In this document: in pieces, positions 20,545 through 48,261 of the stretch | How positions within the stretch are numbered: position 1 is the stretch's first letter | Layout of the letters: every line of letters starts with the position of its first letter | Origin: a virus | IMG/VR virus record: IMGVR_UViG_3300045988_064045 | Span: 1-48,261 of that record | Direction: 5' to 3' (one strand) | Length of the DNA stretch: 48,261 nucleotides | Made by a program: the position numbers and the translations under genes | Notes under the pieces: model-generated | Databases searched by the model: none | Seen by the model: the letters and a program-made list of their open reading frames with translations, nothing else | Told to the model about the DNA's origin: nothing

Positions 20545-21743
20545 TACATTGACCTCTTCTGATACTCGAGCTCGTAGATGAACTTATGATAGTCATGCAT
20601 CCTGCCAAGACGAAGGCGAAGATATTTAATAACCTTCTCGCGAAGTTCAAGATTGTTGAACACGAAACACTTGCCAACGACGTCGGCTTTGTTCCTCACA
20701 GTCAACAGTGAAGCATACTTGCCAGCATAGTTCTTGATGAGGTCTTCGCCATAGTCTGCAATGAACAACGGGACGCACGAGTAAGTAACTGCTTCAAGTA
20801 CTCTTGCTGTCATGAACTTGTACTTACAGTAACTTGCTTTCGCGAACAAGATAGTAGTCTCAGCCTTCGAGTAAGTCTTGAACATGTCTGCCGTCTGAAG
20901 CCTTGGACCAAAGTTGATGTTTGGCCACGTCTCAGCAGAATCACGTCCGCCTTCAAGCCAGTTTCCATATACCTTCGTGTCGGCAAGTCCGTCTGGCCAA
21001 TACTGGTCTATGCACCAGTCCCTCTCGTAACGGTTGCCGACATAGACGAGAGAGTCTTCAATCCAGTTTTCGTCAGAGATGACTGGAAGTTCTTCAATAG
21101 CTTCTTTACTGAAGGGAATTGCCACTTTGACAGACTTGATGTCTTCGATAGCTTTCCACCTGTCTCCAAGTTCTACTACACAGAAGTTGAGACCAAGTTC
21201 TTTCAGTCTCTTTGCTTCAGAGTAAGAAAGCTTGTAGTCAAGATCGAAGATGAAAAGCGGCACGTTGTTATAGAGGCAATACAAGATGATGCAGTACTGA
21301 ATGTATACATCTGGTTGCCAAGAAGCACCTAGGCGATCTTTGGAGTCATAGTCATTCCTACCCTTAATATCCATCCTCCATTCATGCAGAATGAATTCTG
21401 GGGCCTCTTGTAGCTTCTCGTCAAACTTTCTGGTAATGTCGTTCATAGACATTTTACTTACATCATCAATGTAGTCAACCTTCGAAGTCCTGAGGTAAGC
21501 TTTCTCGCGATCACTTCCGGCGAAAGCTTTGAAGTCTTCACTACCGAGAGACTCATAAGCCGGCTTGTCACGGTCTGGCATAAGTTGGACGACATCATAT
21601 CCGGCTTCCTGAAGACCATTGATGATAGCCCACGAATAGAAAGCGTTCCCGTCTGGCGTGCTCACAAGATTCTTCTTGTTGTCCATCTTGTAGTCCCCTA
21701 GGAAGCCCCAAAAACTGTAACCTACTTTTGGCATTCTTACCAC
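20544..21743 (-). CDS. GT-B-like glycosyltransferase, putative hydroxymethyl-base DNA glycosyltransferase (paralog 1, 399 aa)
   Basis: Motif-level resemblance to T4 beta-glucosyltransferase (YVGNRYERD; MTARVLEAVTYSCVPLFIAD versus ITLRVWETMASDAVMLID, recalled from memory). Paralogous to the next gene. Sits adjacent to the hydroxymethylase. Confidence 0.35.
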   Translation of the reverse strand: MVRMPKVGYSFWGFLGDYKMDNKKNLVSTPDGNAFYSWAIINGLQEAGYDVVQLMPDRDKPAYESLGSEDFKAFAGSDREKAYLRTSKVDYIDDVSKMSMNDITRKFDEKLQEAPEFILHEWRMDIKGRNDYDSKDRLGASWQPDVYIQYCIILYCLYNNVPLFIFDLDYKLSYSEAKRLKELGLNFCVVELGDRWKAIEDIKSVKVAIPFSKEAIEELPVISDENWIEDSLVYVGNRYERDWCIDQYWPDGLADTKVYGNWLEGGRDSAETWPNINFGPRLQTADMFKTYSKAETTILFAKASYCKYKFMTARVLEAVTYSCVPLFIADYGEDLIKNYAGKYASLLTVRNKADVVGKCFVFNNLELREKVIKYLRLRLGRMHDYHKFIYELEYQKRSM

Positions 21744-22825
21744 TCCTTCTTGTTCCAGTATGATCTCACACTGCCAATATCTGTGAGCTTCTGCATTGAC
21801 TCAGATTCTTTGATAGCCTTAAGGACTTCTGAACTCTTTGAGCAAAAGTCTTTGTCCTTAAGCTTACTTTCTATCTCGTAGAATCCGTCTACCAGAAGCT
21901 CTGATTTGATTATATCATAGATATCTGGGAAAGACTTCTCAATTTCAGACAAATTACAAGACCTGAAGACATACGGTAGACAATTGCACCATACTGCTTC
22001 ACAGAATCTCTGCCAACTAAAAGTAGCAGGATTGTACGAGGGGATCACTGCTGTAGCTTTTGACGATGCCAACAAGGCGAAGTAGTCATCCTGCTTTACG
22101 AAAGCTTTCTTGCCCTTGCCCTTCCTGTTAGTATCACACAGGTTGATGTCAAGTGAGCAATTGCTCTCCAAGTCGTCTTTAATGCTTCTCAACCAGTCTC
22201 GACCATTGCCAGAAAGAGAGCAATAGAAAACAAAGTCTTTGTATTTCTCGACTTCATAGAACTTTGACATCTGCTTCCACCTGTAGTTCCAATACGGAGC
22301 TAAGTCATAGTCATCACCATCGACAAAGTAAAGTCGACTGAAGTTTTTAAAATGGAAGATCTGCTCAAGCCTTGCTTCATCCGGATCAATCACGTAGTGG
22401 TACACATGATCACAGATACTAGAAGCTACATCAACTAACGTCAGAAAGAAGTAGAAGTTCTTCATTGATACGTAATTGAAAGCGTATTGGTCGTTCTCCT
22501 TGTCGAAGAATTTGCCACCGACACTGCAGTCATTGTAGTTGAAGTTAGAATAGATAGGAAGTTTCATCAACAACAATGTTGAGATGTCTTCTTTCTCCAA
22601 GATGTCTTTAGCTTGTTTCCTAGCATCCTTCCAGCCTGTGATATCATCTGGAGTAAACTTGACTGAGCGGAAGCAACAACTTCTAGCAAGCTTGTCAGAC
22701 TTATACTTGTCAATCAAAACGAAGTCTTCATTTGGAAGAAAGTCAGTCAAAGACTCAACTAAGAACTTGACTACATTGTCATTGCTAGTAGCCATGTTGC
22801 CTGCAAGAAAGACACCTACTGACAT
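21737..22825 (-). CDS. GT-B-like glycosyltransferase paralog 2 (362 aa)
   Basis: Shares GNGRDW and R..EAV...C.P blocks with the 399-aa neighbour. Confidence 0.3.
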   Translation of the reverse strand: MSVGVFLAGNMATSNDNVVKFLVESLTDFLPNEDFVLIDKYKSDKLARSCCFRSVKFTPDDITGWKDARKQAKDILEKEDISTLLLMKLPIYSNFNYNDCSVGGKFFDKENDQYAFNYVSMKNFYFFLTLVDVASSICDHVYHYVIDPDEARLEQIFHFKNFSRLYFVDGDDYDLAPYWNYRWKQMSKFYEVEKYKDFVFYCSLSGNGRDWLRSIKDDLESNCSLDINLCDTNRKGKGKKAFVKQDDYFALLASSKATAVIPSYNPATFSWQRFCEAVWCNCLPYVFRSCNLSEIEKSFPDIYDIIKSELLVDGFYEIESKLKDKDFCSKSSEVLKAIKESESMQKLTDIGSVRSYWNKKEW

Positions 22826-23376
22826 TTGTTCGCGTCCTCCAGCCTAGGCTCCATAACCATGTTCTCATTCAATGAATAGAACTTCCTAGCAGCTTCTTCA
22901 ACTTCACGATCGATGTCATCAAACTCGATCCTAGTAGAAGCAATAGGAGACATAAGGAATGCAGCGTCCATTGTCTTGTAGTGCAAAGACAAGTCACGAC
23001 CATCCATAGCAGAAGCGCGTGCCGGTCCTTTCCTGTCGAACATGTAGTACATAAAGACGTGCTGACGCATATTTAATAAACGATCTTCAATCTTTCCGAG
23101 ATTAGCAAGTGCATCTTTGTAGATGTAGTTCCTGTCGATAAGACCATACGTGAAGTCAGTCAGGTGGAACCGGTCAAAGATCATTGGGGAGTTAGTCAAG
23201 TCAAGAATGTTCAGCATCTTCAACATCTTGTCAGTCTCGTTCGGACTGTCCATCCAATTGCCAAGGTCTACTGTCGTAGCATCATCATGATAGACTGGAA
23301 CCCCAATCCATTCAGAAAGCTTGTTAGCAAATGTAGACTTGCCCATCCTGTCAATGCCTTCAACTATGTAGATCAT
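22816..23376 (-). CDS. P-loop deoxynucleoside-monophosphate kinase (thymidylate-kinase-like)
   Basis: IYIVEGIDRMGKST matches the Tmk P-loop (FEGIDGSGKST). The likely start is the internal MIYIV. Confidence 0.55.
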   Translation of the reverse strand: MIYIVEGIDRMGKSTFANKLSEWIGVPVYHDDATTVDLGNWMDSPNETDKMLKMLNILDLTNSPMIFDRFHLTDFTYGLIDRNYIYKDALANLGKIEDRLLNMRQHVFMYYMFDRKGPARASAMDGRDLSLHYKTMDAAFLMSPIASTRIEFDDIDREVEEAARKFYSLNENMVMEPRLEDANKCQ

Positions 23377-23433
23377 CTGATCTCCATTTCTATAAAGACA
23401 AAGGGAAGCCTTTCGGCTTCCCCTCATCATTGA

Positions 23434-23802
23434 TTACTTGCAAGTAGATTCGATCCTGTCAGAGACAACCTTGAGCTTTTTCTCAATTGCCTCTGCCATG
23501 TCTGACGAATCAAACCCAGAATACAAGCACATATTCATCCAGACGATGAAGCAATCTGCTAGTTCGTCCTTCTTGTTAGCTGAGTCACACTTCTCGTTCC
23601 TGAAGTTTTTCCAACGCTTGTCAGCTTCAAGCACTTCACCGATCTCAGAGACAAGCTGTTGCACATGATAACTGCAAAGTTTAGGATCATCTACCGGAAG
23701 CACAGAGTCTTTGTCGATGCTTGAAAAGTCATCATACATACCACTAGAAAGAAGCTTCTCCTGATTAGAAGCTTGCTGACCAAACATAGATTCGAACGTC
23801 AT
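23434..23802 (-). CDS. all-alpha NTP pyrophosphohydrolase (MazG/dimeric-dUTPase/dCTPase-like)
   Basis: LVSEIGEVLEADKRW...EKCDSANKKDELADCFIVWMNM fits the E-x-x-E ... E-x-x-D metal-binding pattern of MazG-like enzymes. Confidence 0.45.
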   Translation of the reverse strand: MTFESMFGQQASNQEKLLSSGMYDDFSSIDKDSVLPVDDPKLCSYHVQQLVSEIGEVLEADKRWKNFRNEKCDSANKKDELADCFIVWMNMCLYSGFDSSDMAEAIEKKLKVVSDRIESTCK

Positions 23803-37986: not shown

Positions 37987-38000
37987 AGTCTCCTCCTCTT

Positions 38001-38300
38001 CTACTGAAGACCATTCTCAAGAAGGTACTTGGATACTACTTCCTCGACACCCTCACGAGTCTTGATCCCCTTGAGACCTACCATGTTGTCATGAGCAAAG
38101 TTCTTAAGCTCTGTATCGGTCCACTCAGACACAGGCTTGTCAAGCAGAGAAGAACCATCATCTGCGGCACCGTGAGGAGACTCAACGGGATCGTTATCGT
38201 TGTTCACCTCATGGAAACCAATGGGCTCATAGAAGTTATGGAAGCCACCGTCAGTGACAATGAACTCCTCAACGCCGTTCGTGATCTTCACCATTGGCAT
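38001..38300 (-). CDS. small protein with C-terminal HeH (Rho-N/SAP-like) motif
   Basis: SEWTDTELKNFAHDNMVGLKGIKTREGVEEVVSKYL. Confidence 0.35.
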   Translation of the reverse strand: MPMVKITNGVEEFIVTDGGFHNFYEPIGFHEVNNDNDPVESPHGAADDGSSLLDKPVSEWTDTELKNFAHDNMVGLKGIKTREGVEEVVSKYLLENGLQ

Positions 38301-38371
38301 TTGATTACCTCCGTTCTTACGACAGGGGCCGGGACTATGCCCGGCCCTAGTTGCTTTATCTCAGACTACTT

Positions 38372-39403
38372 CTAAGCAGTTGTAGTCAGGATGTAGACCT
38401 CATCTGCAGCCTCGAAAGACGGGAGGCAGATCTGGGAGACGATGGTCTCGACGTTCACCGGGTCAACCTTCTGAGCAGTGGTGACTGCGACACCAGTGTC
38501 AGTGATGGAGACATTGGCAGAAGAACCAGACATCAGGTCGGACTCGGCGGGAGTAGTACCAAACCAAGTCTTACCGAGGTTACCGTCCGGCATAAGCACG
38601 AAGGTGTTCTCGGGGACGTACTTTGTCTTAGTACCAGTGGACGAGATGTAGCGCTTGTCGTTGACCTCAACCGAGATACCGAGCTCCTGGAGCATGAACT
38701 CCCTGAGTCGGGTGTCAGAGACAACAGCCTGACCGTTAGACAGGACGAAGATGGACTTCTTCACCTTGTCGTTGTTACGGATGTTGCGCCAAGTAGCACC
38801 GTCGCACAGTGCACGGGTGATGGTCGCGCCAGTGTCATCCTGGATAGCCTCGGCTGCCTTTCGGATATCCTCAATGGGATCAGAAGTGGCAGTGTTAGAC
38901 CAAGACGTAGTCACGGAACCCTTGTGGGACACGCCGTAGTCGAAGGTGAAGTTCTGGCCGTTAGCAGTAAGCGCGACGGAACCTGTCGTCAGTGCCATCA
39001 TTCGCATAGCCTCTCGGGCTGCGGCGGCACCACGGAGAAGGTTGGTCTCGTCATCAAAGACACGATTGACAATGGAGTCAATGTAAGCCTGGTTGCCAGT
39101 TTCCATCACCATGTTGAGTTGCTGGCGAAGCTCCTCGTCAATGTAGGTGCTCTCCTTGAAGTAGGGCATCTCCGCGGAAAGACGGTCGAAACCGATACGG
39201 GGACGAGGAATGGAAGCAGCGTCAAAAGCGGAAGTGTTCAGGACAACGGGAAGGCCCTTGGAACCCTTGATCCACTTCAGATCAAGGCCGAGCTTCTTCT
39301 CGTTGGGGAACAGAGTCTCACCAAGGTAGGGAGCCTCATCCTGGTTGAGCTCCTCCCAGTAAGCAGTGATCTCAGTTGCACGAACAATATCAAAGATAGT
39401 CAT
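38372..39403 (-). CDS. major capsid protein (HK97-fold; lambda gpE-like family suspected)
   Basis: 343 aa, directly after the scaffold and a small gene. GC-rich codon usage differs from the rest of the genome. Confidence 0.6.
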   Translation of the reverse strand: MTIFDIVRATEITAYWEELNQDEAPYLGETLFPNEKKLGLDLKWIKGSKGLPVVLNTSAFDAASIPRPRIGFDRLSAEMPYFKESTYIDEELRQQLNMVMETGNQAYIDSIVNRVFDDETNLLRGAAAAREAMRMMALTTGSVALTANGQNFTFDYGVSHKGSVTTSWSNTATSDPIEDIRKAAEAIQDDTGATITRALCDGATWRNIRNNDKVKKSIFVLSNGQAVVSDTRLREFMLQELGISVEVNDKRYISSTGTKTKYVPENTFVLMPDGNLGKTWFGTTPAESDLMSGSSANVSITDTGVAVTTAQKVDPVNVETIVSQICLPSFEAADEVYILTTTA

Positions 39404-39419
39404 TTGCTATCCCCCTATC

Positions 39420-39797
39420 TTAAAGCTTGAGGAAAGACACGTTGGCAACCTTGTTGGCACCAGCAGTGACCTTTGCCTGGACATCGGACTCAAGTCGGTT
39501 GATGTTGACGAAACCGAAGATCAGCGCAGTACCGTTGGCATTGCCAGCAGTGACATCAACATCATGGAGAAGGACGGCATTCGCAGTAGAACCGACGGTA
39601 TCAGCAGTAGCAGCCGTGGAGAGCGAGCCATAGTCGATCACGATAGGCGTACCAGCCTTGGCGATCTTCTTAGAACCGACAACTGTACCGACGGCCTGAG
39701 CAACTACACAACCGACAGAAAACTGATGCTCGACATTAGCGAGAATCTGAGTAGGAGCACCGAGGGTCTCCTTGGTGATACCAGACTTGTTCAGCAT
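39420..39797 (-). CDS. hypothetical head protein (125 aa; decoration protein possible)
   Basis: Lies between the scaffold and major capsid genes; Gly/Ala/Val-rich. Confidence 0.35.
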   Translation of the reverse strand: MLNKSGITKETLGAPTQILANVEHQFSVGCVVAQAVGTVVGSKKIAKAGTPIVIDYGSLSTAATADTVGSTANAVLLHDVDVTAGNANGTALIFGFVNINRLESDVQAKVTAGANKVANVSFLKL

Positions 39798-39812
39798 AGT
39801 ATCTCCTTTCGA

Positions 39813-40526
39813 CTAATTTTTAAAATAATTAGACTTCCCACTGTTTGCACGGCGAGAAGTTGCGAGACGCTTACCGATAGAACCGGGTTGAGTCTTCGCA
39901 GGGTCGGAATTCTGGAGAGACGTCACATTCACAGTAGACCCTGTTCCCTTTGCGCGATTGGCTTCTTGCTGACGAGAAGCATCATCACCGACAAACCAAT
40001 CAGGGAACTTACTGCGAAGCATTGCAACCGCATCAGAGACACTCATCTCTTTACCGTTAGACTCGTTCTCCTTGATGGCGTTGTCAACAAGGACCGACAC
40101 CTCGTTCAAGATGTCTGCCTTTGCACCAGCAGCCATGCACTCGACCTTCACCTCGGCCTCATTAGCTCGACGAAGTGCATCCTCCAACTCAGCCGAGTTA
40201 CCGGAGCCGTCATCTGGATCAGTAGCAGGCTTCTGGCTTGCCACAAAGTTCTTCACCATGTTGACGAGTTCCTTATTGTTCGGGTCAATGCCGAGTGCAT
40301 TGTAAGCACTGTTGCGACCCTCCTGCTTCTCCTTCGTCATCATTGCAGTCACGTCAGACTGGGTGAACGTCTTCTCCTGAGTCTGCACCTGCTGGTTCTG
40401 AACCTGTTGGTTCTGGTCAATCACCTGCTGATTCTGACCATTGTTCTGGTCACCGTTCTGGTTCTGGTCGTCTACTTGGTTCTGGTTCTGAGGGTCCATG
40501 TTCTCTCCTTTGTCCATGACTTCCAT
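39813..40526 (-). CDS. scaffolding protein
   Basis: Gln/Asn-rich N-terminus (QNQNQVDDQNQNGDQNNGQNQQ) and helical charged C-terminus, directly before the capsid genes. Confidence 0.6.
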   Translation of the reverse strand: MEVMDKGENMDPQNQNQVDDQNQNGDQNNGQNQQVIDQNQQVQNQQVQTQEKTFTQSDVTAMMTKEKQEGRNSAYNALGIDPNNKELVNMVKNFVASQKPATDPDDGSGNSAELEDALRRANEAEVKVECMAAGAKADILNEVSVLVDNAIKENESNGKEMSVSDAVAMLRSKFPDWFVGDDASRQQEANRAKGTGSTVNVTSLQNSDPAKTQPGSIGKRLATSRRANSGKSNYFKN

Positions 40527-40575
40527 GGTGAGTTTACTATATGCAAATGGAAGCTTCTCTGCAAGTTCTCCTATG

Positions 40576-40962
40576 TCAGGACTGGTTTCCTGAAAAGTCG
40601 AGGACCAGAGTCAAACCGTCATCAAGCTTGACTTCCAGTCCATCCAACTTGTTTTCCAGTTTCTTCCTCGCACTCTCGAGGTCTGACTTCGCTTTGTCGC
40701 GTTCCATTTTTAATTTCTCTGAAGGCGAACCGGCGAAAGCTTCATGTAGTAGACTTACTTCTCTCTTCAAGATCATCTTAGAATGCTTGTCATCTACTTG
40801 GAGACAAACAGGTTCAAAGCATTTTGGACAAGTCTCGTATGTCAGATCATATTCCAAGTTGTTGTACTTGAACTTTGAACTGTGCACAGTGGAGATGAAA
40901 GAAACTGCTCCGCATGATGGACACTTGACTTTTGCCAAAAGACCACTTTCAGCTTTTCGCAT
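40576..40962 (-). CDS. zinc-ribbon (CPSCG...CPKC) coiled-coil protein
   Basis: Two CxxC pairs and a C-terminal heptad region. Has its own promoter, h. Confidence 0.4.
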   Translation of the reverse strand: MRKAESGLLAKVKCPSCGAVSFISTVHSSKFKYNNLEYDLTYETCPKCFEPVCLQVDDKHSKMILKREVSLLHEAFAGSPSEKLKMERDKAKSDLESARKKLENKLDGLEVKLDDGLTLVLDFSGNQS

Positions 40963-40980
40963 AGCTCCGCCTTCCTATAA

Positions 40981-40996
40981 ATTATATCACAAGTAA
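40981..40996 (-). promoter_or_regulatory. extended -10 promoter (TGA TATAAT), family member h, inside the head module
   Basis: Plus strand aattatatcacaag. Confidence 0.5.
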
Positions 40997-41012
40997 GACT
41001 CGAAGTATACTA

Positions 41013-41852
41013 CTAATAGTCAATATTTTCTAGACAATATTCGGTGAACTTTCCGATCTTCTTCTTGAGTTCAACCGGCACCATCTTCAACCACTTGCCT
41101 GGGATACCAGAAAGACCAAACCTCAAACCTGCGATCGAGCCTGCAATTGCTGCGATTGTATCAGAGTCTCCACCGTCATTGACGGCCCCAAGTACGACCT
41201 GTAAGTAAGTCTTACCGATCTTGTTCCACCATAGCACATTGTTGAATGTATTCGTGAGGCACCCAGTCGGCTTCTGAGGCCCCTTTACGTCCGTGTCAAA
41301 TGGTTTACCCATGAGAAGGTCTTGAATGATCTTAGAATAGGTCTGAATGACTTCTCTTGACTTCAAGGAATTGTGGGTGATCACACCCTGTTGGTCATTG
41401 TGATCATATAGACCTAGAAGAGCACATGGGAGAGCCCTCATCAAAGCACCATTTCCAAGGACTTCATCATCCCTGTCGATGAACTTGCCATTGTCAGCAA
41501 AGTATTCGATGCCTGCCAGACAAGCACCACCAACATCTTTTGGCATTCCTTCAAGCCATACTACAAACCTCTTCGCGACGTCCTTTTTAAAAACATCTAC
41601 ATCTGAAGAGTCAATGTCAGACAAGAACGAATCAATAATGCACATAGTCATCTCGGTGTCATCTGTGACTTCACCAGGCTTCAGGTTCAACCATCCACCT
41701 CCGATCATGTCCTTGACTCGACCATACTTAGCGATGACTTGATCTGAATCCATGAACTCAGTAGTAGCACCAAGAGAGTCGCCTATACAGAAACCGTATA
41801 GTGAACCTGCAATCTTATTCTTCAAGTTCATCTTAACTTCTGAAGAAGACAT
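41013..41852 (-). CDS. ADP-ribosylglycohydrolase (ARH/DraG/Tri1-like)
   Basis: GDSLGATTEF, TDDTEMT, GNGALMR and C-terminal GGDSDTIAAIAGSIAG: the di-metal ARH motif set. Confidence 0.8.
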   Translation of the reverse strand: MSSSEVKMNLKNKIAGSLYGFCIGDSLGATTEFMDSDQVIAKYGRVKDMIGGGWLNLKPGEVTDDTEMTMCIIDSFLSDIDSSDVDVFKKDVAKRFVVWLEGMPKDVGGACLAGIEYFADNGKFIDRDDEVLGNGALMRALPCALLGLYDHNDQQGVITHNSLKSREVIQTYSKIIQDLLMGKPFDTDVKGPQKPTGCLTNTFNNVLWWNKIGKTYLQVVLGAVNDGGDSDTIAAIAGSIAGLRFGLSGIPGKWLKMVPVELKKKIGKFTEYCLENIDY

Positions 41853-41866
41853 TTTCCTCCTCCAAC

Positions 41867-41891
41867 TTAGGCCCCTATGGCCATTATAACG
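41867..41891 (-). promoter_or_regulatory. AGGCCCCT-type element plus TATAAT -10 upstream of the ARH gene
   Basis: Plus strand ttaggcccctatggccattataacg (compare 17021-17045). The -10 is the revcomp of 41884-41889. The UTR carries GGAGGAGG. Confidence 0.3.
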
Positions 41892-41925
41892 ACATCTTAA
41901 ACCATATGCAGAAGCATGTAAACTG

Positions 41926-42192
41926 CTATTTTTCTTTCAGTTCACATTCCTCACCTGACATGACGTCTTCTGGCTTATGGTCATACTTGTAGCATTTTGT
42001 AACTACGCCGTAAAGCCGTCCATCTTTGTTCTCCTGACCATTTTTAAATGGGTCAGAATCATCATACCTGAACTTGCAATCAGCACAAGTAAGATCTGAT
42101 ACTTTAACTGGACTTGCCGCCATACTTTCTGATCTGATCCTCTCGTCAAATTCATTGCTGTTACTTGAAGCTAGATTTCTAGACATAGACAC
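41926..42192 (-). CDS. small 4-Cys protein (CxxC...C...C), unknown function, between the toxin-domain gene and the ARH gene
   Basis: 88 aa. RBS AGGAAGGAG. Downstream of the TATAAT at 42219-42224. Confidence 0.4.
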   Translation of the reverse strand: MSMSRNLASSNSNEFDERIRSESMAASPVKVSDLTCADCKFRYDDSDPFKNGQENKDGRLYGVVTKCYKYDHKPEDVMSGEECELKEK

Positions 42193-42234
42193 TCCTTCCT
42201 TGCTACAATCTTAATTCAATTATATACCTGTTAG

Positions 42235-44976
42235 TTATGACACGATCCTGAGGAATACTTTTACGAAAGCATCTTTGTGGTAGTCTTCTGACTTCTCGAT
42301 ACCGACACATTCGACCTTTGTACCAGGAGCCAAGAGGAACTCTCCTTCTTCATCTTTGAATGCTGACTTTGTCAGAACAGATATGCCCTTAGTACCTTCT
42401 GGAGCATCTATGATTACTTCTACAGAGCCACTGAAACCTCTTGAATATACAGAAGAAGTAGACGTGAATCCCTTGTACACTCCCTGTGATCCCTTGAAAG
42501 CATCGTTAAGTTCTTCTGCCGTCATTTCTTCTAGCCTTGCACTGTCTCCAATGAAGTCGTTACTATCCATGAACAGACCCACAAGGTCTCCATAGTCAGT
42601 ACATCTTCTCAAGACCATGTCTTCTTTAGTCCTAGAGTTCTCCATGTCTTCGTCAAGTATCTTCAGTATCTTCACAAGCCTATCTGACAAACCTTCTCTC
42701 TTCGCTGTACTGGCATCAAACTTCGTCTTACTTTTCCTAAGCCATCTATTGATCTTCTCGTACGGACCACCTGTATATTCATCAAGAGCTTCGATTGACC
42801 TGTCATCAAACTTAGCGAAGATACTCTTCTCACTCTTGATGAGTTTTGCTATCTTCTTGTTGTCTTCTTCTTCGGTGGAACTCATAAACTTCTTGAAGTC
42901 TTTCTTCATCTCATCAATTGACTTCTTCCTCAGCGTCACTTTCTCTACGTTTTTAGCAGTCTTATCTGCCACAATGTCACTAGCCAAGCCATTCTTTTTC
43001 AAGTCTTTAAGTTCATCTTCGATCTTAGCAACCTTGTCGATGTATGGCTTCAATTCTTCTATGTCAGACTTGAACAGACCAGTTGCTCTTGAGAAGTCAA
43101 ACTTGATATTATCAATGTAACGGTCTTCTATGCCAAAGTCTTTGAACTTCTTTATCATGGAAGCATCTCCTTCCATGACTTTACCTACAAACTTAGCAGA
43201 GATCTTGTCAGTCACACTGAAGTTCAGGTTTGCAACAGAAAGGTTAGAAGCTTCATCTGGGAACATCAACTTGTAAAGCTCGAGAATCTTCTTCTTGTCG
43301 TCCTCGGTGTAGCCACCAAGATAATCGCCTTTTAGACCAAGAGGTATGTCAAGCTTACCGTAAAGATACTCGCTAGAACCCTTAGGATTGATCTTCTTAA
43401 GTATCTCGTCGTAAGGTACGCCATCTTCTTTCATGTCCAAGAACTTCTTTATCTTGTTGACATCCTTCTTGCCAAGTTGCAGTTCCTTTGCGGCTTTGCT
43501 CAATGCTTTTTCTGAACTCTTCTTTGCTTCATTCAAGTCTTTTTCAAGCTCAGCAATGTCAACCTTCTTGACTGCAGAGTCAACTTTTTCTAGTTTATCA
43601 GACTTGACAAACTTATTAAATATTGAACCCTTGGTGTCGCCAAGCTTCTTACCGGTCTCAGATTCGAAAAGCTTCTTCACCTTGTTTTCAACAGATGACA
43701 CGTCGACACCGTCAATCACGTCATCTGAAAGTAAGTACTTCACAAAGTCCTCATTTGTAAAGTAGTCATGGTCATAAAGCTCGTTAAAGTACTTTTCTAC
43801 AGTCTTGCCTATCTCATTATGCACTTTGTCAGACAGACTATCAATAAGTTGAATATAATCTCCAGAATCAATTGCAGACTTGATATTCTTCTTATAGTTA
43901 GAAAACCACTTATTGAACTCATCTATGTTGTCAACAGCATCTTCAACTTTGTCAACAACATCTTCGACTTTGTCAATTACTTCTACCTTCGGCTTTGCTT
44001 TCGGCTTTACCTTAGGTTTGTTAGGAGTCTTCAATAGACTCTTCGCGAGTTCGTCTTTGTCATACCCGAGGAGATCGGCGAACTTGTCAATGCCCTTTGT
44101 CTTCTTGGTCTCCTTGCCATTGACCCAGTCTGCAAGTTGGTCAGTGATATCATCGTCAATGACTGGCTCCATCACACACATGCCATTAGGATGGTCTAGT
44201 GGAAGCTTAGACAATGCATAGACTTTACCGTTGCGCTTCTTACATATCTCGCATACACGAGAACCGTTAGCTATCCACTTGATCTTACTTATGAACGGGT
44301 TGTCCCAGGCAACTTGTGATACTGACTTCTGGTAAGCGTGCTGTGACAAAGTCCTTACCAGACGCTGTGCATTGTAGTCAGTCTTCCTACCATAGATCTT
44401 GGTACCGTCCGGACCAGTCCAATCCAACTTCTTTGTCGGGTCAACAAAGTCTCGTAGGTTCTCGGCAATCTCCTGGACACCCATCTGCATTGTCATGCCC
44501 TCTGCAACTATCCTATAGATAGTCTTGAGGTTCTTCTCGTTGTCTCCCCAGATGCTCTTCGAGAGAGACCATGAACCAGACTTACCACCATAGATCTTAC
44601 CAGTCACGATGGAGTTCACCACCGACTGGTTCACGTTACTGAAAGCAGCACTGACGTGACCCTTATTAAAACCAAGAGACTCAAGCCATTTTGCATTGTC
44701 TTCTACTACGGCATCAGACACAGACCCGATCGCTTGTGTCACCTTCGAGTACACACCATTGCTCAACTCTTTAGACCAAGCTTCGACTTGCTTCTTGAGT
44801 TGGGTGTAGTACATCTGCTGCAATGGAGCACTAGCAGTGTCTTTCTTCCCGTACTTCTTACCGAGATCATCGATCTTCTTGCCAAGCTCGACATACATCT
44901 GCTGGATCTCCTGCGATTCCTTAGCAGTGATTTTGTCTCGCATTCCATTAGCATATTCAAACGGGTTACTTGGCAT
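42235..44976 (-). CDS. MuF-family head morphogenesis protein fused to a C-terminal R-S-E ADP-ribosyltransferase toxin domain
   Basis: N-terminal 300 aa contain the MuF/gp7 motif WIANGSRVCEICKKRNGKVY...DHPNGMCVMEPV. C-terminus has YTGGPYEKINRWLR (NAD-binding ART motif), LRRC (catalytic Arg), GFTSTSS (STS motif) and EGEFLLAPG (ExE ARTT loop). A KPKVKPKAKPK/DKVED repeat linker separates the two. Confidence 0.8.
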   Translation of the reverse strand: MPSNPFEYANGMRDKITAKESQEIQQMYVELGKKIDDLGKKYGKKDTASAPLQQMYYTQLKKQVEAWSKELSNGVYSKVTQAIGSVSDAVVEDNAKWLESLGFNKGHVSAAFSNVNQSVVNSIVTGKIYGGKSGSWSLSKSIWGDNEKNLKTIYRIVAEGMTMQMGVQEIAENLRDFVDPTKKLDWTGPDGTKIYGRKTDYNAQRLVRTLSQHAYQKSVSQVAWDNPFISKIKWIANGSRVCEICKKRNGKVYALSKLPLDHPNGMCVMEPVIDDDITDQLADWVNGKETKKTKGIDKFADLLGYDKDELAKSLLKTPNKPKVKPKAKPKVEVIDKVEDVVDKVEDAVDNIDEFNKWFSNYKKNIKSAIDSGDYIQLIDSLSDKVHNEIGKTVEKYFNELYDHDYFTNEDFVKYLLSDDVIDGVDVSSVENKVKKLFESETGKKLGDTKGSIFNKFVKSDKLEKVDSAVKKVDIAELEKDLNEAKKSSEKALSKAAKELQLGKKDVNKIKKFLDMKEDGVPYDEILKKINPKGSSEYLYGKLDIPLGLKGDYLGGYTEDDKKKILELYKLMFPDEASNLSVANLNFSVTDKISAKFVGKVMEGDASMIKKFKDFGIEDRYIDNIKFDFSRATGLFKSDIEELKPYIDKVAKIEDELKDLKKNGLASDIVADKTAKNVEKVTLRKKSIDEMKKDFKKFMSSTEEEDNKKIAKLIKSEKSIFAKFDDRSIEALDEYTGGPYEKINRWLRKSKTKFDASTAKREGLSDRLVKILKILDEDMENSRTKEDMVLRRCTDYGDLVGLFMDSNDFIGDSARLEEMTAEELNDAFKGSQGVYKGFTSTSSVYSRGFSGSVEVIIDAPEGTKGISVLTKSAFKDEEGEFLLAPGTKVECVGIEKSEDYHKDAFVKVFLRIVS

Positions 44977-45006
44977 CGAAGACCTCCTCTCATAGGTTAG
45001 AAGCTA

Positions 45007-45021
45007 CCAGACGTCATCTGA
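45007..45021. promoter_or_regulatory. palindrome copy 3 (CCAGACGTCATCTGAGG) between the portal and MuF genes
   Basis: 14 of 15 identical to the copies at 1982-1996 and 13753-13767. Confidence 0.4.
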
Positions 45022-45047
45022 GGACATCTAATTGTTTGGATGGGTGT

Positions 45048-46685
45048 TTATTGGGCTTGCTGATTGTCAAGGCTTCCAGGGGCCTCTGAAAGGTCCCCAT
45101 CTTCTGGATTGTCCTCACCTTCACCAAGCGGGTTCTCATCTACTTTATTCACGTCAGAAGTATCAGGGTAGGGTACACCTGTCGAGAAGGAAGCTTCATT
45201 GATGATCTGCTGCTCCAAGGCGATCTGCTCGAGCTCCTCCTGGACCTCATCATCAGTAAAGTCACGCCACTTCTTCATGTAAGACTTTCGAGACATCACG
45301 TTACTCTCCACCTCAGTCAAGTCCATCTGCTTTGACTCGATCTCGTCCTCTGGAAGCGGGAGGACATTGTCTACTTCAATCTCGTAAGGGACATCCATCA
45401 ATATCGAGTCGACATATTCACGCGCTGTGTCAGGATACTCGAGTGCGCCTTGGATGATGATGTCAACCATCTCGGTCAAAGCCGGACCCCAAGCCTTCAT
45501 CTTCTCCTTGCAACGGACAATCAACGGCCAGTAGACCGCCTTCAATGCCTTGCCACTCGAGATCACACCAGTCATGGAATCAAGCGTCACATCAGGCATG
45601 TCAACTGTCTCGTAAGCAGAAGACTTGATCCTCTTCAAAGTCTCAGTCAATGCTGTCGAGTAAGAAAGACTGTGTTCGATAGAACCGACTGAAGCATGCG
45701 AGTTATCCAAGTTCTGGTCCGAGCCAAGGTCCCAGAAACTACCAGGAGCTCGAGACAAGTTCTTGGTACTGTTGCCATCCATGTCTATCGCGTAGTCGAC
45801 TGGATTCATTCCCTTCCGCTCAGCATCAATGTCAGCGTTGTTCAGACGGCTGAACCAAGACTCGTAACTCTCGAGGGACTCCATCTCGGATTCTCCGTCA
45901 AGGTCACCAGTAAGTCCATCGTTCAGGATCACTACTGCCGGGATACGACCGAGTGTGATCTCCATATGCTCGGTGATCAACTCGAGCTCTGTACCAATGC
46001 CATCATATAAAGCTTCATCCAGATAGACTTTGTCTTCACCATTGATAGTCTCAGTCGTGTACCGCTTCATGAAGATTCGGCGTTCATTGAGACGAGTACT
46101 GTCTTTCAAGATGATGAAAGCAACAAACTTGCTGAGCTCATTGGTGTTCATCTTGAACTCGTAGATGAACTGAGTAGACGGGATGAAGCATACTGTGATG
46201 CCGTCTTGCTCATTGAAGTTCACCAGACAACCGACTCGCTTACCGATGAAGCAGTCTCGAGCAGCCTTCACTACCTGCTGGTCGAACTTGTTTGTTTTTA
46301 AAACATTAGCTACAAGTCGATGTAGGTCATCAATTGCTTTGCTGTACTTCTCATCAGCTGGATAGTCATCCGACTTGAGCACGTCAATGTCAGGCGGCTC
46401 GGCAAACAAGAAGCGAGCTTCTTTGTCTATCAGAGAAGCTGCCATCTTGTAGTTCAACTTTGCTGGTAGGTAGTCAAGACCGGAACCCTCTGTCAAGAAG
46501 TCGGCTCCGTCTTTGTAGACTTTGTAGTAACCGACAATCTTTGCCAGCTCCATCTGCAAGTCGTGTGTGCCACTCTGGACTTCTCGGTTCAACAAGCTAG
46601 ATGGGATACGGTTGAAGACGGATATGATGTCCGCATCGGATTTGCTCTGCATCACCATCTTAGTTTCCTCAGACATGGGCATCAT
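45048..46685 (-). CDS. portal protein (SPP1 gp6-like)
   Basis: 545 aa with an acidic C-terminus, directly before the MuF gene. Confidence 0.55.
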   Translation of the reverse strand: MMPMSEETKMVMQSKSDADIISVFNRIPSSLLNREVQSGTHDLQMELAKIVGYYKVYKDGADFLTEGSGLDYLPAKLNYKMAASLIDKEARFLFAEPPDIDVLKSDDYPADEKYSKAIDDLHRLVANVLKTNKFDQQVVKAARDCFIGKRVGCLVNFNEQDGITVCFIPSTQFIYEFKMNTNELSKFVAFIILKDSTRLNERRIFMKRYTTETINGEDKVYLDEALYDGIGTELELITEHMEITLGRIPAVVILNDGLTGDLDGESEMESLESYESWFSRLNNADIDAERKGMNPVDYAIDMDGNSTKNLSRAPGSFWDLGSDQNLDNSHASVGSIEHSLSYSTALTETLKRIKSSAYETVDMPDVTLDSMTGVISSGKALKAVYWPLIVRCKEKMKAWGPALTEMVDIIIQGALEYPDTAREYVDSILMDVPYEIEVDNVLPLPEDEIESKQMDLTEVESNVMSRKSYMKKWRDFTDDEVQEELEQIALEQQIINEASFSTGVPYPDTSDVNKVDENPLGEGEDNPEDGDLSEAPGSLDNQQAQ

Positions 46686-46697
46686 ATCCGCCCCTTC

Positions 46698-47759
46698 CTA
46701 ATAGTAGATCTTCTTGCCAACTTGAATGACATTGGGATTGCTGATCCCGTTGGTGCGAGCCAGAGTCATGTAGTCATTCCCGTAGCCGAGCTTCTTCGCG
46801 ATGCCAGACAATGTGTCACCAGACTGGACAACGTAGTACCTTGCTTTCTTCTCCGAGTACTTCTCGTCGACTACTTTCTGGACTTCATTGTAACGAGATC
46901 CAAGCCGGCGTTTACGGGTATCGCCGTCACCGAACGTGCCCTTCATCACCTCGAGTGCAAGGGTCGACGCGTCAGACTCAAGAATGAAGTTCACTGCCGA
47001 CTGGATCTCATTGTAACGAGAGCCAAGTGCTGACTTGCGAGCATCACCTGAGCCATACTTACCGTAGATCACATCAGCTGCAATGTCATACACGTTGCCA
47101 CTTACTCCAGTAACAGGTTTGACTTCATTTGGAGTCACAGTACCAGAGATGAAGTCTTTTAGTGAACGACCGAGACAAGCATTACAGTCAACGCCACCGG
47201 AGATACCAGGGACACTGCCGTTAGAAGTGAACTGCCATAGATCACACTGCTTACCAGGAGTCCTGTGTGCATACCCGTCATTGGGCCCGTAAGTCGGAAT
47301 CCAGCGCCACTTCTCTCCGTAAGTGTCACCGCCGTACTCATTGAACAGATGGGCTGCAATGTATATGCCATTGTCAAGTCCAGTCTCGTTCAACTTAGAC
47401 ATTGCAGCTTTGATGCCGTCATGAGACTGACCCTCAACTTCTACATCAAGGATGTAGCCACGGCAGCTTGAACCACCAGCATATACCAGACGATTGATCA
47501 TACGCTCAGCTTCAGCAGTTCCACCATTACGGTAGAAGCCATACGCGTAGTACGGGATGCCGAGTCGCTGACATGCAGCTACATTACGAGAAAGCTTTGT
47601 ATCTGCGTGATCACCATCCTGGACTCGCAAGATAGCAAAGTGGATGTTGTGCTTCACAGTATCCCAGTCAATGTCACCTTGCCACTCAGACACGTCAATG
47701 ATGGTAGGTAGGATGCTACTCATCGGTACCAGAACCAATCTTGAACACCGAGTTACCAT
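46698..47759 (-). CDS. endolysin: GH25 muramidase + 2x CW_7 + LysM
   Basis: IDVSEWQGDIDW (GH25). Two repeats of (V/M)(I/K)YGKYG(S/D)GD(A/T)RK..LGSRYNE(I/V)Q..V(N/D) (CW_7-like). C-terminal YVVQSGDTLSGIAKKLGY...ISNPNVIQVGKKI (LysM). The start is either 47759 or the internal Met at 47723. Confidence 0.8.
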   Translation of the reverse strand: MVTRCSRLVLVPMSSILPTIIDVSEWQGDIDWDTVKHNIHFAILRVQDGDHADTKLSRNVAACQRLGIPYYAYGFYRNGGTAEAERMINRLVYAGGSSCRGYILDVEVEGQSHDGIKAAMSKLNETGLDNGIYIAAHLFNEYGGDTYGEKWRWIPTYGPNDGYAHRTPGKQCDLWQFTSNGSVPGISGGVDCNACLGRSLKDFISGTVTPNEVKPVTGVSGNVYDIAADVIYGKYGSGDARKSALGSRYNEIQSAVNFILESDASTLALEVMKGTFGDGDTRKRRLGSRYNEVQKVVDEKYSEKKARYYVVQSGDTLSGIAKKLGYGNDYMTLARTNGISNPNVIQVGKKIYY

Positions 47760-47958
47760 CCTCTACCTCAGGGATTCCGGCAATGCTAGTCAAGATCGAG
47801 ACGACGGCTGCTACACCAGAAACAGAGACGATCTGGACCCAGTCAAGATCCGTGAAGCCTACAGTGCCAGATCCGATCAGTGTCACAGAAGTCTGGGCAA
47901 ACGTCTTCACTGCTCGGATACCTGCTGCCTCTGCCCAGTCCTTGAATGTTGCTTTCAT
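47716..47958 (-). CDS. holin (two-TM class, about 80 aa)
   Basis: AAGGAG RBS. Two hydrophobic segments with a charged C-terminus. Its 3' end overlaps the endolysin start. Confidence 0.55.
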   Translation of the reverse strand: MKATFKDWAEAAGIRAVKTFAQTSVTLIGSGTVGFTDLDWVQIVSVSGVAAVVSILTSIAGIPEVEDGNSVFKIGSGTDE

Positions 47959-47961
47959 AAG

Positions 47962-48206
47962 TTACTCCTTACCTGTAGTAGTTACCTGCTCGGTAGCACC
48001 TTCAATCTCAATGCCAAGAAGTTTTGTAGGGAACGCGTCATCTACATGGATGAAGGTGTCCTTCTCCTTGCGAGTGAGTGTGCTAGCACCCAGTAGAGAC
48101 AAATTGTCAGCAACTTCCTTTGCACTGTTTGCTGCGTTTGTTGCACTCAAAGCTGCTGCGTCAGCTGAAGTCTTTGCTTTGACTTCACTAGCAGAAGCGT
48201 TAGTAG
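47962..48206 (-). CDS. 3' portion of the junction-spanning fibrous protein gene (see 1..724)
   Basis: Same frame as 724..1 once the 55-nt duplicate is removed. Stop TAA at 47962-47964. Confidence 0.5.
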
Positions 48207-48261
48207 CTGAGGTGTTCGCGTTCTCTGCGGACTCAGATGCACTAGTAGCGGAAGCAGCACT
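48207..48261. repeat. duplicate of nt 1..55
   Basis: Exact 55/55 identity. Confidence 0.9.

Follow-up and report, generated by a model that had tools for sequence, protein, structure and literature searches.

A putative MuF-ADP-ribosyltransferase toxin cassette with a four-cysteine mini-protein and a DraG-like hydrolase in an apparently lytic phage

Described systems and the phage locus

In MuF polymorphic toxins the N-terminal MuF domain is joined to a C-terminal toxin that is polymorphic, and a small ORF lies downstream (Zhang et al. 2012, PMC3482391; Jamet et al. 2017, PMC5576092). Fusions of MuF to ADP-ribosyltransferases (ARTs) were catalogued in 2012 (PMC3482391), 2017 (PMC5576092) and 2022 (Iyer et al. 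2022, PMC9503650, for MuF-fused Alt/VIP2 ARTs), and ARTs make up 14% of the catalogued MuF toxins (PMC3482391, PMC5576092, PMC9503650). In 2012, ADP-ribosyl(arginine) hydrolases (ARG/ARH) were recognised as enzymes that provide the immunity to R-S-E ART toxins (PMC3482391). In the Bacteroides stercoris prophage PhiBxa, a head-morphogenesis module encodes the MuF-ART Bxa, the ARH immunity protein BAH and the small inhibitor Bsi, all experimentally characterised (Brown et al. 2021; Alexei et al. 2024, JBC, PMC11699363). R-S-E ARTs neutralised by DraG-like ARHs are also found in Serratia proteamaculans (Tre1/Tri1, 6DRE) and Listeria (Lmo0066/Lmo0067, 8ZA7). Tre1 is delivered by PAAR/T6SS.

Alt of phage T4 is not known to need a MuF fusion to enter the T4 head. 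Like the protein proposed here, it is a capsid-carried ART of a lytic phage that is injected with the DNA (PMC8120803, PMC9503650); no T4 ARH or inhibitor was found in the literature cited here. The Apk2/Aph1/Tis1 system is similar to the present one in pairing a MuF toxin with a structural immunity protein, which is always present, and with a product-degrading hydrolase of variable occurrence, although Apk2 is a (p)ppApp synthetase where the toxin described here is an ART, and its hydrolase is of the HD type and acts on alarmones (PMC10083569).

The window, i.e. the whole 48,261-nt stretch that was analysed, holds a complete, circular genome of 48.2 kb (GC 46.8%), that of a siphovirus-like gut phage infecting Clostridia-type bacteria (probably Oscillospiraceae); its relatives were found in gut samples of animals and humans. 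A cassette of MuF-ART, mini-protein and ARH genes lies inside the head-morphogenesis operon, directly downstream of the portal gene and followed by the scaffold, decoration and MCP genes, and this order is kept in relatives whose MuF is only ~49% identical. The minus strand carries all three ORFs, at the positions given in an earlier note on this DNA (Table 1). Since the same three-part design has been demonstrated experimentally in the Bacteroides prophage, the arrangement is not novel, but a new example of a known system. As for Bxa, the toxin gene is accompanied by genes for an ARH, of the type that undoes Arg-ADP-ribosylation, and for a small protein that is not an enzyme, and the MuF N-termini of relatives bear alternative toxin domains. 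The two differ in host (Gram-positive Clostridia versus Bacteroides), in genome (apparently lytic versus an integrated prophage) and in the ARH (nearest to DraG, whereas BAH is described as ARH1-like); the small protein belongs to a new Cys4 family and is likened to Bsi by description, and the activities of the phage proteins are predicted ones.

A search of all ORFs of at least 100 aa found no integrase, excisionase or repressor, and the phage supplies its own DNA polymerase, primase, RecA, ThyX and dUTPase. The phage thus looks lytic, consistent with its description as apparently virulent in the earlier note, whereas toxin-bearing MuF proteins were reported in temperate phages only (Jamet et al., PMC5576092). 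Among phages, the ARG domain has been reported as rare and mostly confined to jumbo or actinobacterial ones, while here it is stable in a family of ~48-kb phages.

Table 1. Features of the locus (window coordinates)
Feature	Position	Strand	Basis
DraG-like ADP-ribosyl(arginine) hydrolase, 279 aa	41013..41852	-	PF03747, DraG, Tri1, TIGR02662 matches
Promoter-like motif GTTTACA-N17-TAAGAT, mini-protein/ARH intergenic	41894..41923	-	scan; conservation
4-Cys mini-protein, 86 aa	41926..42186	-	probable start ATG at 42186; GTG at 42192 would give 88 aa
Exchanged module: distal linker, ART domain, most of mini-protein gene	41990..43570	-	blastn breakpoints
MuF-ART fusion gene, 913 aa	42235..44976	-	ORF; PHROG 1657; PF03496
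C3/Vip2-type R-S-E ART domain, aa 701-913	42238..42876	-	profile vs PDB, AF2, Foldseek
Codons E877-G878-E879, ExE, arginine-type ARTT motif	42340..42348	-	E877, E879 invariant
Codons S839-T840-S841, STS motif	42454..42462	-	invariant or nearly so
Codons R790-R791, catalytic Arg, strand beta1	42604..42609	-	conservation; AF2 model strand 99-105
K/D/E-rich linker, aa 321-700	42877..44016	-	homologue length comparison, sequence
MuF/SPP1-gp7-like N-terminal domain, aa 1-320	44017..44976	-	profile matches; near-isogenic comparison

The fusion protein and the hydrolase

The 913-aa protein matches PHROG 1657 ('head morphogenesis') over aa 14-364 (E 2.4e-41) and TIGR01641 (phageSPP1_gp7) with E 5.5e-8 and 33.2 bits, under the 39.65-bit cutoff; Pfam Phage_Mu_F was not significant (E 0.077). 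Its putative MuF membership rests on the PHROG profile and the sub-threshold TIGRFAM match. An invariant CxxC...DHPNGMC motif (C242, C245, H262, C267) is present in the N-terminal domain. Nearly all of the 1237 homologues carry PF03496, and their lengths range from 557 to 1043 aa because the linker is polymorphic in length; the linker-coding DNA contains a 21-nt tandem repeat (43928-43976).

The earlier note had called a complete R-S-E ART set at the C-terminus and suggested profile and structure searches, which bear out both domain calls. Pfam ADPrib_exo_Tox (PF03496) is matched over aa 724-901 (E 8.5e-17, 61.6 bits versus a 23.4-bit cutoff). Profile comparison with the PDB gave Certhrax (8e-16) and Lmo0066 (2.6e-15) as best matches, followed by C3larvin, Vip2, C3, CDTa and iota Ia, with Tre1 at 8e-4, and the AF2 model of the domain is a confident ART fold (pLDDT 95, pTM 0.89), for which Foldseek returned Plx2A (9e-13) and 8za7_B (2e-12). 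The latter, the best structural relative besides Plx2A, is the Listeria ART whose structure was determined together with that of its bound ARH (8za7_A), which in turn matches the ARH of the window; both partners of 6DRE likewise match window proteins. The motif YTGGPYEKINRWLR quoted in the note is present at aa 734, R790 and R791 lie in an LRRCTD motif (R790 is invariant in A3, R791 in A5), and the STS aligns to that of Lmo0066 and Certhrax. Judged over 23 ART alleles and 14 full-length homologues, the motif residues are invariant or nearly so. Since ExE is typical of arginine-modifying ARTs (PMC8120803), the motif suggests that the ART ADP-ribosylates arginine residues.

The ARH, placed two genes downstream in the note as a full DraG/Tri1-type enzyme, lives up to that description. 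It matches Pfam ADP_ribosyl_GH (PF03747, E 1.5e-45), TIGR02662 (2.6e-51), DraG of R. rubrum (2woc, 7e-40) and Tri1 (6dre_A, 1.4e-24). The catalytic E-D-D of DraG (E28, D60, D97; PMC8120803) maps to E32, D64 and D106 and is intact, and the second metal motif, GGDSDT (residues 227-232), is conserved. ART and ARH are predicted to be active enzymes. The likeness to Tre1/Tri1 holds for the pairing of an R-S-E ART with a DraG-like ARH; it does not extend to the full analogy, in that the inhibitory N-terminal extension of Tri1 is absent from the phage ARH. Tri1 unites occlusion, through this extension, and hydrolysis in one protein, whereas here occlusion would presumably fall to the separate mini-protein, and delivery would proceed through the phage head rather than by T6SS.

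The mini-protein and its exchange with the ART

The four cysteines noted earlier are confirmed, and 12 homologues share all of them without exception (C34, C37, C65, C81); the length of 88 aa is not, since the start is probably the ATG at 42186, which is preceded by the Shine-Dalgarno sequence AGGAAGGAG and gives the 86 aa called in relatives. The protein is probably zinc-binding. It has no match in Pfam, PHROG, NCBIfam or by fold (model of moderate confidence, pLDDT 73.6), and its family is tiny, on phage-sized or smaller contigs. One orphan copy (L060) is found in a non-phage setting.

The earlier note had given the mini-protein and ARH genes -10 elements of their own, as a hint of separate regulation. 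TATAAT hexamers are indeed present at 42224-42219 and 41888-41883 (the second shifted one base from the 41884-41889 first read), but a sigma-70-type scan of 38000-48261 gave 11 promoter-like sites versus 10.7 expected from shuffles. Such sites are therefore no commoner than chance, and that the antidote is regulated separately is not established. The one promoter-like motif that is conserved, the intergenic GTTTACA-N17-TAAGAT, is kept in close relatives, and similar motifs follow the toxin gene at the same place in distant ones; as some of these lack the ARH, it looks like a promoter of the downstream capsid operon.

Comparison by blastn with near-isogenic phages (L004, L027-L030) placed the breakpoints of an exchanged module within the linker (left edge at about 43563-44023) and within the 3' end of the mini-protein gene; its GC content is 40.8%, versus 46.8% for the genome. 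Backbones of near-isogenic phages are 93-100% identical. In these five, portal (97%), ARH (94-97%) and MCP (98-100%) are highly identical, while identity falls to 34-37% in the ART and 41-45% in the mini-protein; L031 shares the allele, and there every compared protein is at least 95% identical. The MuF N-terminal domain is 95-98% identical among near-isogenic phages with differing ART domains, as for P0005-P0022, where the ART domain is at 33-38%. At least 25 ART allele clusters occur among the top 120 homologues. Spearman coefficients over 27 near-isogenic pairs were 0.80 for ART and mini-protein and -0.08 for ART and ARH, and over 190 pairs 0.66 for ART and mini-protein versus -0.01 for ART and portal. 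The mini-protein thus varies with the ART and not with the backbone, and the ARH with the backbone and not with the ART allele. As ART and mini-protein are swapped together over a stable ARH, the former is likely to have in the mini-protein an allele-specific partner, which we propose to be a cognate, non-enzymatic inhibitor or partner, and in the ARH a generic enzymatic antidote or eraser. The co-variation could partly be plain physical linkage, because the mini-protein gene directly abuts the ART-coding end, and the roughly three independent alleles on the present backbone mean few independent exchange events.

Linkage, or a chaperone relationship, could also yield this co-variation if the mini-protein were an assembly chaperone or adaptor resembling a zinc ribbon, on which a given ART allele depends for folding or for loading into the capsid, or merely an unrelated small protein of the head module that is linked to the toxin. 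We consider this improbable. It would agree with the lack of homology to any known immunity family and with L005, whose ART-like C-terminus is very divergent and which lacks the mini-protein gene, so that the mini-protein is not obligatory. On the other hand, small size, a position directly downstream of the toxin and joint exchange are hallmarks of polymorphic-toxin immunity (PMC5576092, PMC3482391), Bsi and Tis1 are direct precedents for an inhibitor, the mini-protein is absent from all toxin-less relatives, and the L060 copy recalls orphan immunity genes.

In all five relatives with a short MuF (305-306 aa) both ART and mini-protein are absent, and none has an intact ARH: what four of them retain is an ARH-like ORF, shortened and without the GGDxDT metal motif, and L025, the fifth, gave no ARH match. 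Four others (L012, L017, L018, L021) have ART and mini-protein and lack the ARH, which mirrors the variable hydrolase of Apk2 systems (PMC10083569). The finding of intact ARH only beside toxin-bearing MuF genes speaks against its being an independent backbone gene that is not, or not only, an antidote to its own ART, for example a counter-defence enzyme removing ADP-ribose added by ARTs of the host or of competing phages, with a merely historical adjacency to the toxin. We regard this as unlikely, though somewhat less so than the chaperone role discussed above. In its favour, the ARH follows the backbone, it is kept at 94% identity in L005, where the ART is barely recognisable and the mini-protein gene missing, and a generic Arg-ADPr eraser would also counter ARTs injected by superinfecting relatives. 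However, ARG immunity is strictly associated with R-S-E ART toxins (PMC3482391), BAH is enough to neutralise Bxa (PMC11699363), and from an antidote that is an enzyme one would not expect co-variation with the toxin allele.

Proposed function of the cassette

The explanation that we favour, and hold to be likely, is a three-component MuF polymorphic-toxin cassette in a head-morphogenesis operon. By analogy with SPP1 gp7, the N-terminus would bring the protein into the procapsid at the portal, with the long variable linker as a tether for the C3/Vip2-type ART. The protein would probably be ejected with the DNA, and would modify arginine residues, as ExE suggests, in proteins of the cell just infected. 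Late in infection, new toxin would be restrained in two ways in the cell that produces it: the mini-protein may bind the ART as an allele-specific stoichiometric inhibitor or partner, like Bsi for Bxa and Tis1 for Apk2, and the ARH may strip Arg-ADP-ribose from modified proteins, in analogy to BAH, to Aph1 and to the part of Tri1 that is enzymatic. The toxin/antidote logic of the earlier note, and its link to MuF polymorphic toxins, hold up well with Bxa/BAH/Bsi as precedent (PMC11699363). A toxin acting after ejection would later have its marks erased by the phage's own ARH, which is puzzling.

It appears to us quite doubtful that the ART stays out of the next host, acting instead as a late regulator in the producing cell, like T4 ModA/ModB, or as a factor that is released at lysis and affects animal cells or bacteria nearby, be it a Bxa-like fitness factor or an interbacterial toxin. 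Bxa is the only characterised MuF-ART and does act on epithelial cells after release (PMC11699363), packaging of a MuF toxin has never been directly demonstrated (PMC10083569), and the gut origin of the relatives would fit a released factor. Nevertheless, a long-term lysogen fitness factor makes little sense in a phage that looks lytic, and the fusion to a portal-associated head protein, kept in more than 1000 homologues, argues for virion incorporation; gp7 of SPP1, a minor capsid protein at the portal, binds to phage DNA before injection (PMC10083569).

What is new here, within the polymorphic-toxin cassette that we favour, is the joint exchange of ART and mini-protein and the presence of the cassette in a complete, apparently lytic genome. 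ART domain and mini-protein move between phages as one recombination unit, while the ARH remains in the stable backbone.

The head-morphogenesis protein and its toxin domain

The three open reading frames of the earlier note, encoding a MuF-ART fusion, a four-cysteine (Cys4) mini-protein and a DraG-like ADP-ribosylhydrolase (ARH), are all present on the minus strand as it had described. Over its N-terminal ~320 residues, the fusion resembles PHROG 1657 (E 2.4e-41; 'head morphogenesis') and TIGR01641 phageSPP1_gp7 (E 5.5e-8), for which a score of 33.2 bits stays under the cutoff of 39.65 bits; Pfam Phage_Mu_F (PF04233) did not match the protein significantly (E 0.077). A CxxC...DHPNGMC motif in this region is invariant in 14 homologues, and head-morphogenesis proteins of Clostridium phages were matched by tblastn. 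The region is a MuF / SPP1 gp7-like head-morphogenesis domain such as that of MuF polymorphic toxins. As for those toxins, the gene lies in the DNA-packaging and head module next to the portal: an SPP1-type portal gene (PF05133) is directly upstream, and the scaffold, decoration and major capsid protein (MCP) genes are downstream.

At the C-terminus, where a complete R-S-E catalytic set had been proposed, Pfam ADPrib_exo_Tox (PF03496) matches residues 724-901 above its gathering score (E 8.5e-17). A profile of 23 ART alleles matches Certhrax (8e-16) and Listeria Lmo0066 (2.6e-15), as well as C3larvin, Vip2, C3, CDTa and iota Ia, and Tre1 weakly (8e-4). The AlphaFold2 model of the domain is confident (pLDDT 95, pTM 0.89), and Foldseek related it to C3/Vip2-type ARTs with a probability of 1.00. 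Homologues show little or no variation at R790/R791, S839-T840-S841 and E877-G-E879, and these residues sit on the expected strands of the model. The domain has the ART fold and the marks of the C3/Vip2-like class: the beta1 Arg, the STS motif and the ARTT motif (E/Q)xE. Profile search and structure prediction, two of the checks that had been suggested for this domain, thus both recover an ART fold. We infer arginine-specific activity from two features, the ExE motif and the DraG-type partner.

The MuF part would bring this arginine-type ART into the capsid, from which it would be ejected, as suggested by the precedents of SPP1 gp7 and T4 Alt (summarised in PMC10083569 and PMC9503650). The K/D/E-rich linker between the two domains varies so much in length that homologues span 557-1043 aa. 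Within it lies a short tandem repeat, and large in-frame linker indels distinguish the proteins of close relatives.

Features of the window and of relatives' loci (L-numbers); positions refer to the window unless a locus is named
Feature	Position	Strand	Description
Terminal direct repeat	1-55 and 48207-48261		exact, 55 nt
Cysteine peptidase	2023-2703	minus	Peptidase_C39_2-like, E 1.7e-8
dUTPase	8373-8822
ThyX	8819-9424
ThyA-like	19840-20544
Glycosyltransferase-like	20544-21743
Kinase-like	22816-23430
MazG-like	23434-23802
zn128	40576-40962	minus	128 aa, CxxC...CxxC; PHROG 1315, unknown function; between ARH and scaffold genes
ARH	41013-41852	minus	279 aa, DraG-like; PF03747
GTTTACA-N17-TAAGAT	41894-41923	minus	upstream of ARH
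Motif counterparts	L001 8206; L003 4533; L008 9221; L017 8813; L018 9688; L021 9214
Right breakpoint	41986-41994		blastn; within 3' end of mini-protein gene
Mini-protein ORF	most likely start ATG 42186		86 aa; between toxin and ARH; Shine-Dalgarno and relatives
MuF-ART fusion	42235-44976	minus	913 aa; ORF
MuF-ART linker	42877-44016	minus	K/D/E-rich
Left breakpoint	43563-44023		blastn; in linker
Tandem repeat in linker	43928-43976		21 nt, 2.3 copies
Portal	45048-46685		SPP1-type
Endolysin	46698-47759		GH25 + CW_7 + LysM
Holin-like	47716-47958
Third-allele region	L005 4206-6887		includes 570-aa MuF protein; IMGVR_UViG_3300045988_076636
MuF ORF and ART-like region	L017 6558-8500; L018 7001-9400		MuF ORF stops at 441-457 aa
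Shortened ARH-like ORF	L019 7927-8541		~205 aa
Orphan mini-protein homologue	L060 190-426		GCA_964369635.1, contig CAYJGN010000079.1

The two candidate partners of the toxin

The ARH matches PF03747 with an E-value of 1.5e-45 (156.6 bits against a cutoff of 26.2), DraG (2woc) with 7e-40 and Tri1 (6dre_A) with 1.4e-24. The catalytic residues of DraG, E28, D60 and D97 (PMC8120803), correspond to E32, D64 and D106, and GGDSDT, the second metal motif, is likewise unbroken. The catalytic Asp and the ligands of the binuclear metal centre are in place, as in the all-helical ARH domains of the DraG-like family, of which the protein is a member, and its conserved residues predict a catalytically competent enzyme adjacent to the ART. 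This bears out the earlier proposal of a full DraG/Tri1-type hydrolase two genes downstream of the toxin, both in the profile search against ADP_ribosyl_GH and in the retention of the metal-binding residues, whose loss would have spoken against it. Since its scores reach neither the DraG nor the Tri1 equivalog cutoff, the ARH is best described as a family member that is orthologous to neither. [quoted passage not shown] The ARH would be a generic enzymatic eraser, with an activity that is predicted from its catalytic residues.

The small ORF right downstream of the toxin is present, conserved and exchanged along with the toxin domain. Its start codon is the most likely one because a strong Shine-Dalgarno sequence lies upstream and relatives are called at 86 aa. 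The mini-protein has no match in Pfam, PHROG or NCBIfam. A word-indexed homology search with an 88-aa form returned one near-identical cluster only, and exhaustive HMMER and profile searches were required: the former, covering 1.84 billion representatives, found only 10 clusters, all of 68-91 aa, and the latter 33 clusters, every one on contigs of at most 50 kb. C34, C37, C65 and C81 are invariant, as are E20, D43, K71-P72 and V75, which suggests a zinc-binding mini-domain. No fold was assigned, since AlphaFold2 gave a model of moderate confidence only (pLDDT 73.6), for which Foldseek found no meaningful match in the PDB. This previously undescribed family is a candidate ART inhibitor; that it could act stoichiometrically and in an allele-specific manner is suggested by where its gene lies, by the joint exchange with the ART and by the precedents of Bsi and Tis1. 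A homologue in a bacterial assembly (L060; 39% identity, E 1.5e-14) is not preceded by an ART and lies among ordinary bacterial genes (RibD_C, GGDEF, PNPOx). Possibly, a host genome carries it as an orphan immunity gene; the contig is just 4.6 kb long, and the context uncertain.

The earlier note had read separate control of the antidote into -10 elements preceding the mini-protein and ARH genes. The TATAAT hexamers do exist, but promoter-like sites in the region occur at chance level (11 against 10.7 expected), and the hint of separate control is not substantiated. A GTTTACA-N17-TAAGAT sequence upstream of the ARH gene is kept in close relatives. The promoter-like pattern GTTTACA-N16/17-(TGG)TAtAAT/TAAGAT reappears in divergent lineages, some of them without an ARH, close behind the toxin gene or the toxin and mini-protein genes; the window holds no further copy of it, and it may be a capsid-operon promoter. 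We rejected GTTTACA as a recurrent genome-wide phage promoter, as it occurs twice in the genome against ~5 times expected by chance. No terminator-like site was found between the three genes.

Exchange of the toxin module and gene content in relatives

We retrieved 1237 MuF-ART homologues from contigs of ~45-52 kb, and PF03496 is present in almost every one. The order portal, MuF-ART, mini-protein, ARH, ~125-aa protein, scaffold, decoration and MCP is kept down to ~49% MuF identity. The top 120 homologues contain at least 25 ART allele clusters, and in one set of homologues (P0005-P0022) the N-termini are 95-98% identical, the ART domains just 33-38%. Such variable C-terminal domains on closely related N-termini are as expected of a MuF polymorphic toxin.

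Five near-isogenic phages (L004 and L027-L030) were compared to the window. Their backbones are nearly the same, with identities of 97% for the portal, 95-98% for zn128 and 98-100% for the MCP. The ARH is 94-97% identical, against 34-37% for the ART domain and 41-45% for the mini-protein. A further relative, L031, carries the same allele as the window and is at least 95% identical throughout. The exchanged module extends from the linker into the 3' end of the mini-protein gene and has a GC content of 40.8%, compared to 46.8% for the genome. In 27 near-isogenic pairs, the identity of the ART correlates with that of the mini-protein (rho 0.80) and not with that of the ARH (rho -0.08), which follows the MuF N-terminus (rho 0.87); in 190 pairs from 20 loci, the values are 0.66 for ART and mini-protein and -0.01 for ART and portal. 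About three alleles only are found on the window's backbone, and physical linkage alone contributes to the co-variation, because the mini-protein gene abuts the ART-coding end.

Five relatives carry a short, toxin-less MuF protein (305-306 aa); ART and mini-protein are absent from all of them, and none has an intact ARH. Four (L019, L020, L023 and L024) have a ~205-aa ARH-like ORF that aligns to ARH residues 7-25 and 189-276 and has lost GGDxDT, and L025 has no ARH match. The shortened ORF looks like a decayed or repurposed ARH remaining after toxin loss. The two partners also occur singly: L012, L017, L018 and L021 have the ART and mini-protein and no ARH, and L006, L009 and L010 have the ART and ARH and no recognisable mini-protein homologue. 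Weak matches to MqsA-antitoxin-like zinc ribbons (E 0.002-0.02, below cutoffs) led us to try zn128 as a fourth cassette member. It was rejected, since it is present in toxin-less relatives too and tracks the backbone; its position is kept there, and it is therefore part of the head module, not of the toxin cassette.

Two further arrangements were observed. L005 has a third allele on the same backbone, in which the very divergent C-terminus gives no Pfam hit and shows weak ART-profile similarity, with R, STx and ExE-like motifs; its ARH is kept (94% identical), and no mini-protein gene is present. In L017 and L018, ART-like similarity starts right after the MuF stop codon, which may reflect an assembly error, a frameshift in the gene or a toxin encoded by an ORF of its own.

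Lifestyle, host and relation to known systems

The terminal direct repeat indicates a circular, complete genome of ~48.2 kb. Pfam and PHROG scans of all its ORFs of at least 100 aa found no integrase, excisionase, repressor or partition genes; they did find a family-A-like DNA polymerase, primase, SSB, RecA, RuvC-like and Cas4-like nucleases, RNase H, ThyX, a ThyA-like protein and dUTPase. The description 'apparently virulent' thus stands as far as the lack of detected lysogeny genes carries it: the phage is apparently lytic, as judged from absence of evidence. It does not share the association of MuF toxins with temperate phages and prophages (Jamet 2017), which is an association and not a mechanistic requirement. 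The closest relatives in bacterial assemblies are free MAG contigs of ~47-54 kb from the guts of horses, deer, yaks and humans, classified as Oscillospiraceae, Clostridia, Faecousia and Scybalousia, and Mb-scale isolate chromosomes carry only relatives at 30-34% identity. These taxa, together with the GH25, CW_7 and LysM domains of the endolysin, indicate a Gram-positive host. Neither megablast of the region against GenBank phages nor tblastn searches of 50,697 phage records with the ART domain and the mini-protein gave a match, so that there is no cultured reference phage. The window has no tRNAs.

Several other features of the genome were observed. The holin-like and endolysin genes sit between the large terminase and portal genes, inside the packaging/head module (46698-47958; 2694-4163 across the circular junction), an unusual order that is kept in relatives. 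The cysteine peptidase gene adjoins the large terminase gene and is also found in L027. The ThyA-like to MazG-like cluster (19840-23802), apart from which lie the ThyX and dUTPase genes, looks like a DNA-hypermodification pathway; a modified pyrimidine is suggested by the presence of two genes of thymidylate-synthase type in a phage of 48 kb.

MuF has been described as a toxin-delivery module, and ARG, which occurs strictly with R-S-E ARTs, as the sole immunity protein that is an enzyme (Zhang et al. 2012, PMC3482391). ARTs make up 14% of 191 MuF toxins (Jamet et al. 2017, PMC5576092); fusions of Alt/VIP2 ARTs to MuF are numerous, and few phages encode ARG (Iyer et al. 2022, PMC9503650). Bxa, an Arg-specific antibacterial ART, has two antidotes: the adjacent ARH (BAH) counters it enzymatically, and the small protein Bsi physically (Alexei et al. 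2024, PMC11699363). The logic of Apk2/Aph1/Tis1 is the same, and the window cassette, likened by layout and description, appears to have the same toxin, inhibitor and eraser design as Bxa/BAH/Bsi. Tri1 combines two immunity modes in one protein, whereas here they are apparently split between two, as in Bxa; and Tre1/Tri1 relies on PAAR/T6SS delivery, whereas the window toxin has a MuF-like N-terminus. The cassette differs from known systems in its Gram-positive host, lytic-looking genome, new mini-protein family and naturally occurring near-isogenic variants, which record the exchange of toxin and partner as a module. Since its logic is already present in the MuF, Bxa and Apk2 literature, the novelty is modest; the observation of the earlier note is confirmed, and its interpretation partly supported.

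A further reading, which we consider rather improbable, is that in a strictly lytic phage the cassette acts as a timed write/erase device for host takeover and as a weapon when phages compete with each other. As infection begins, the ejected ART would modify arginines of the host with ADP-ribose, and the backbone-encoded ARH, expressed later, would erase those marks as well as those that superinfecting relatives make with their own ARTs. Allele-specific inhibitors, which competing phages or hosts could carry, would drive the diversification of the co-exchanged ART/mini-protein alleles, for which inhibitors the orphan gene of L060 in its bacterial context could be an example.

The proposed toxin, inhibitor and eraser design is found in a widespread ~48-kb family of gut phages of Clostridia that is apparently lytic, whereas the published characterised MuF toxins, Bxa and Apk2, are prophage-encoded. 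Near-isogenic variants differing only in the ART/mini-protein module provide a clean comparative system, which could address whether the toxin is ejected, which target it modifies and why both a stoichiometric and an enzymatic antidote are kept. Current views are extended to another host phylum and lifestyle, rather than overturned.
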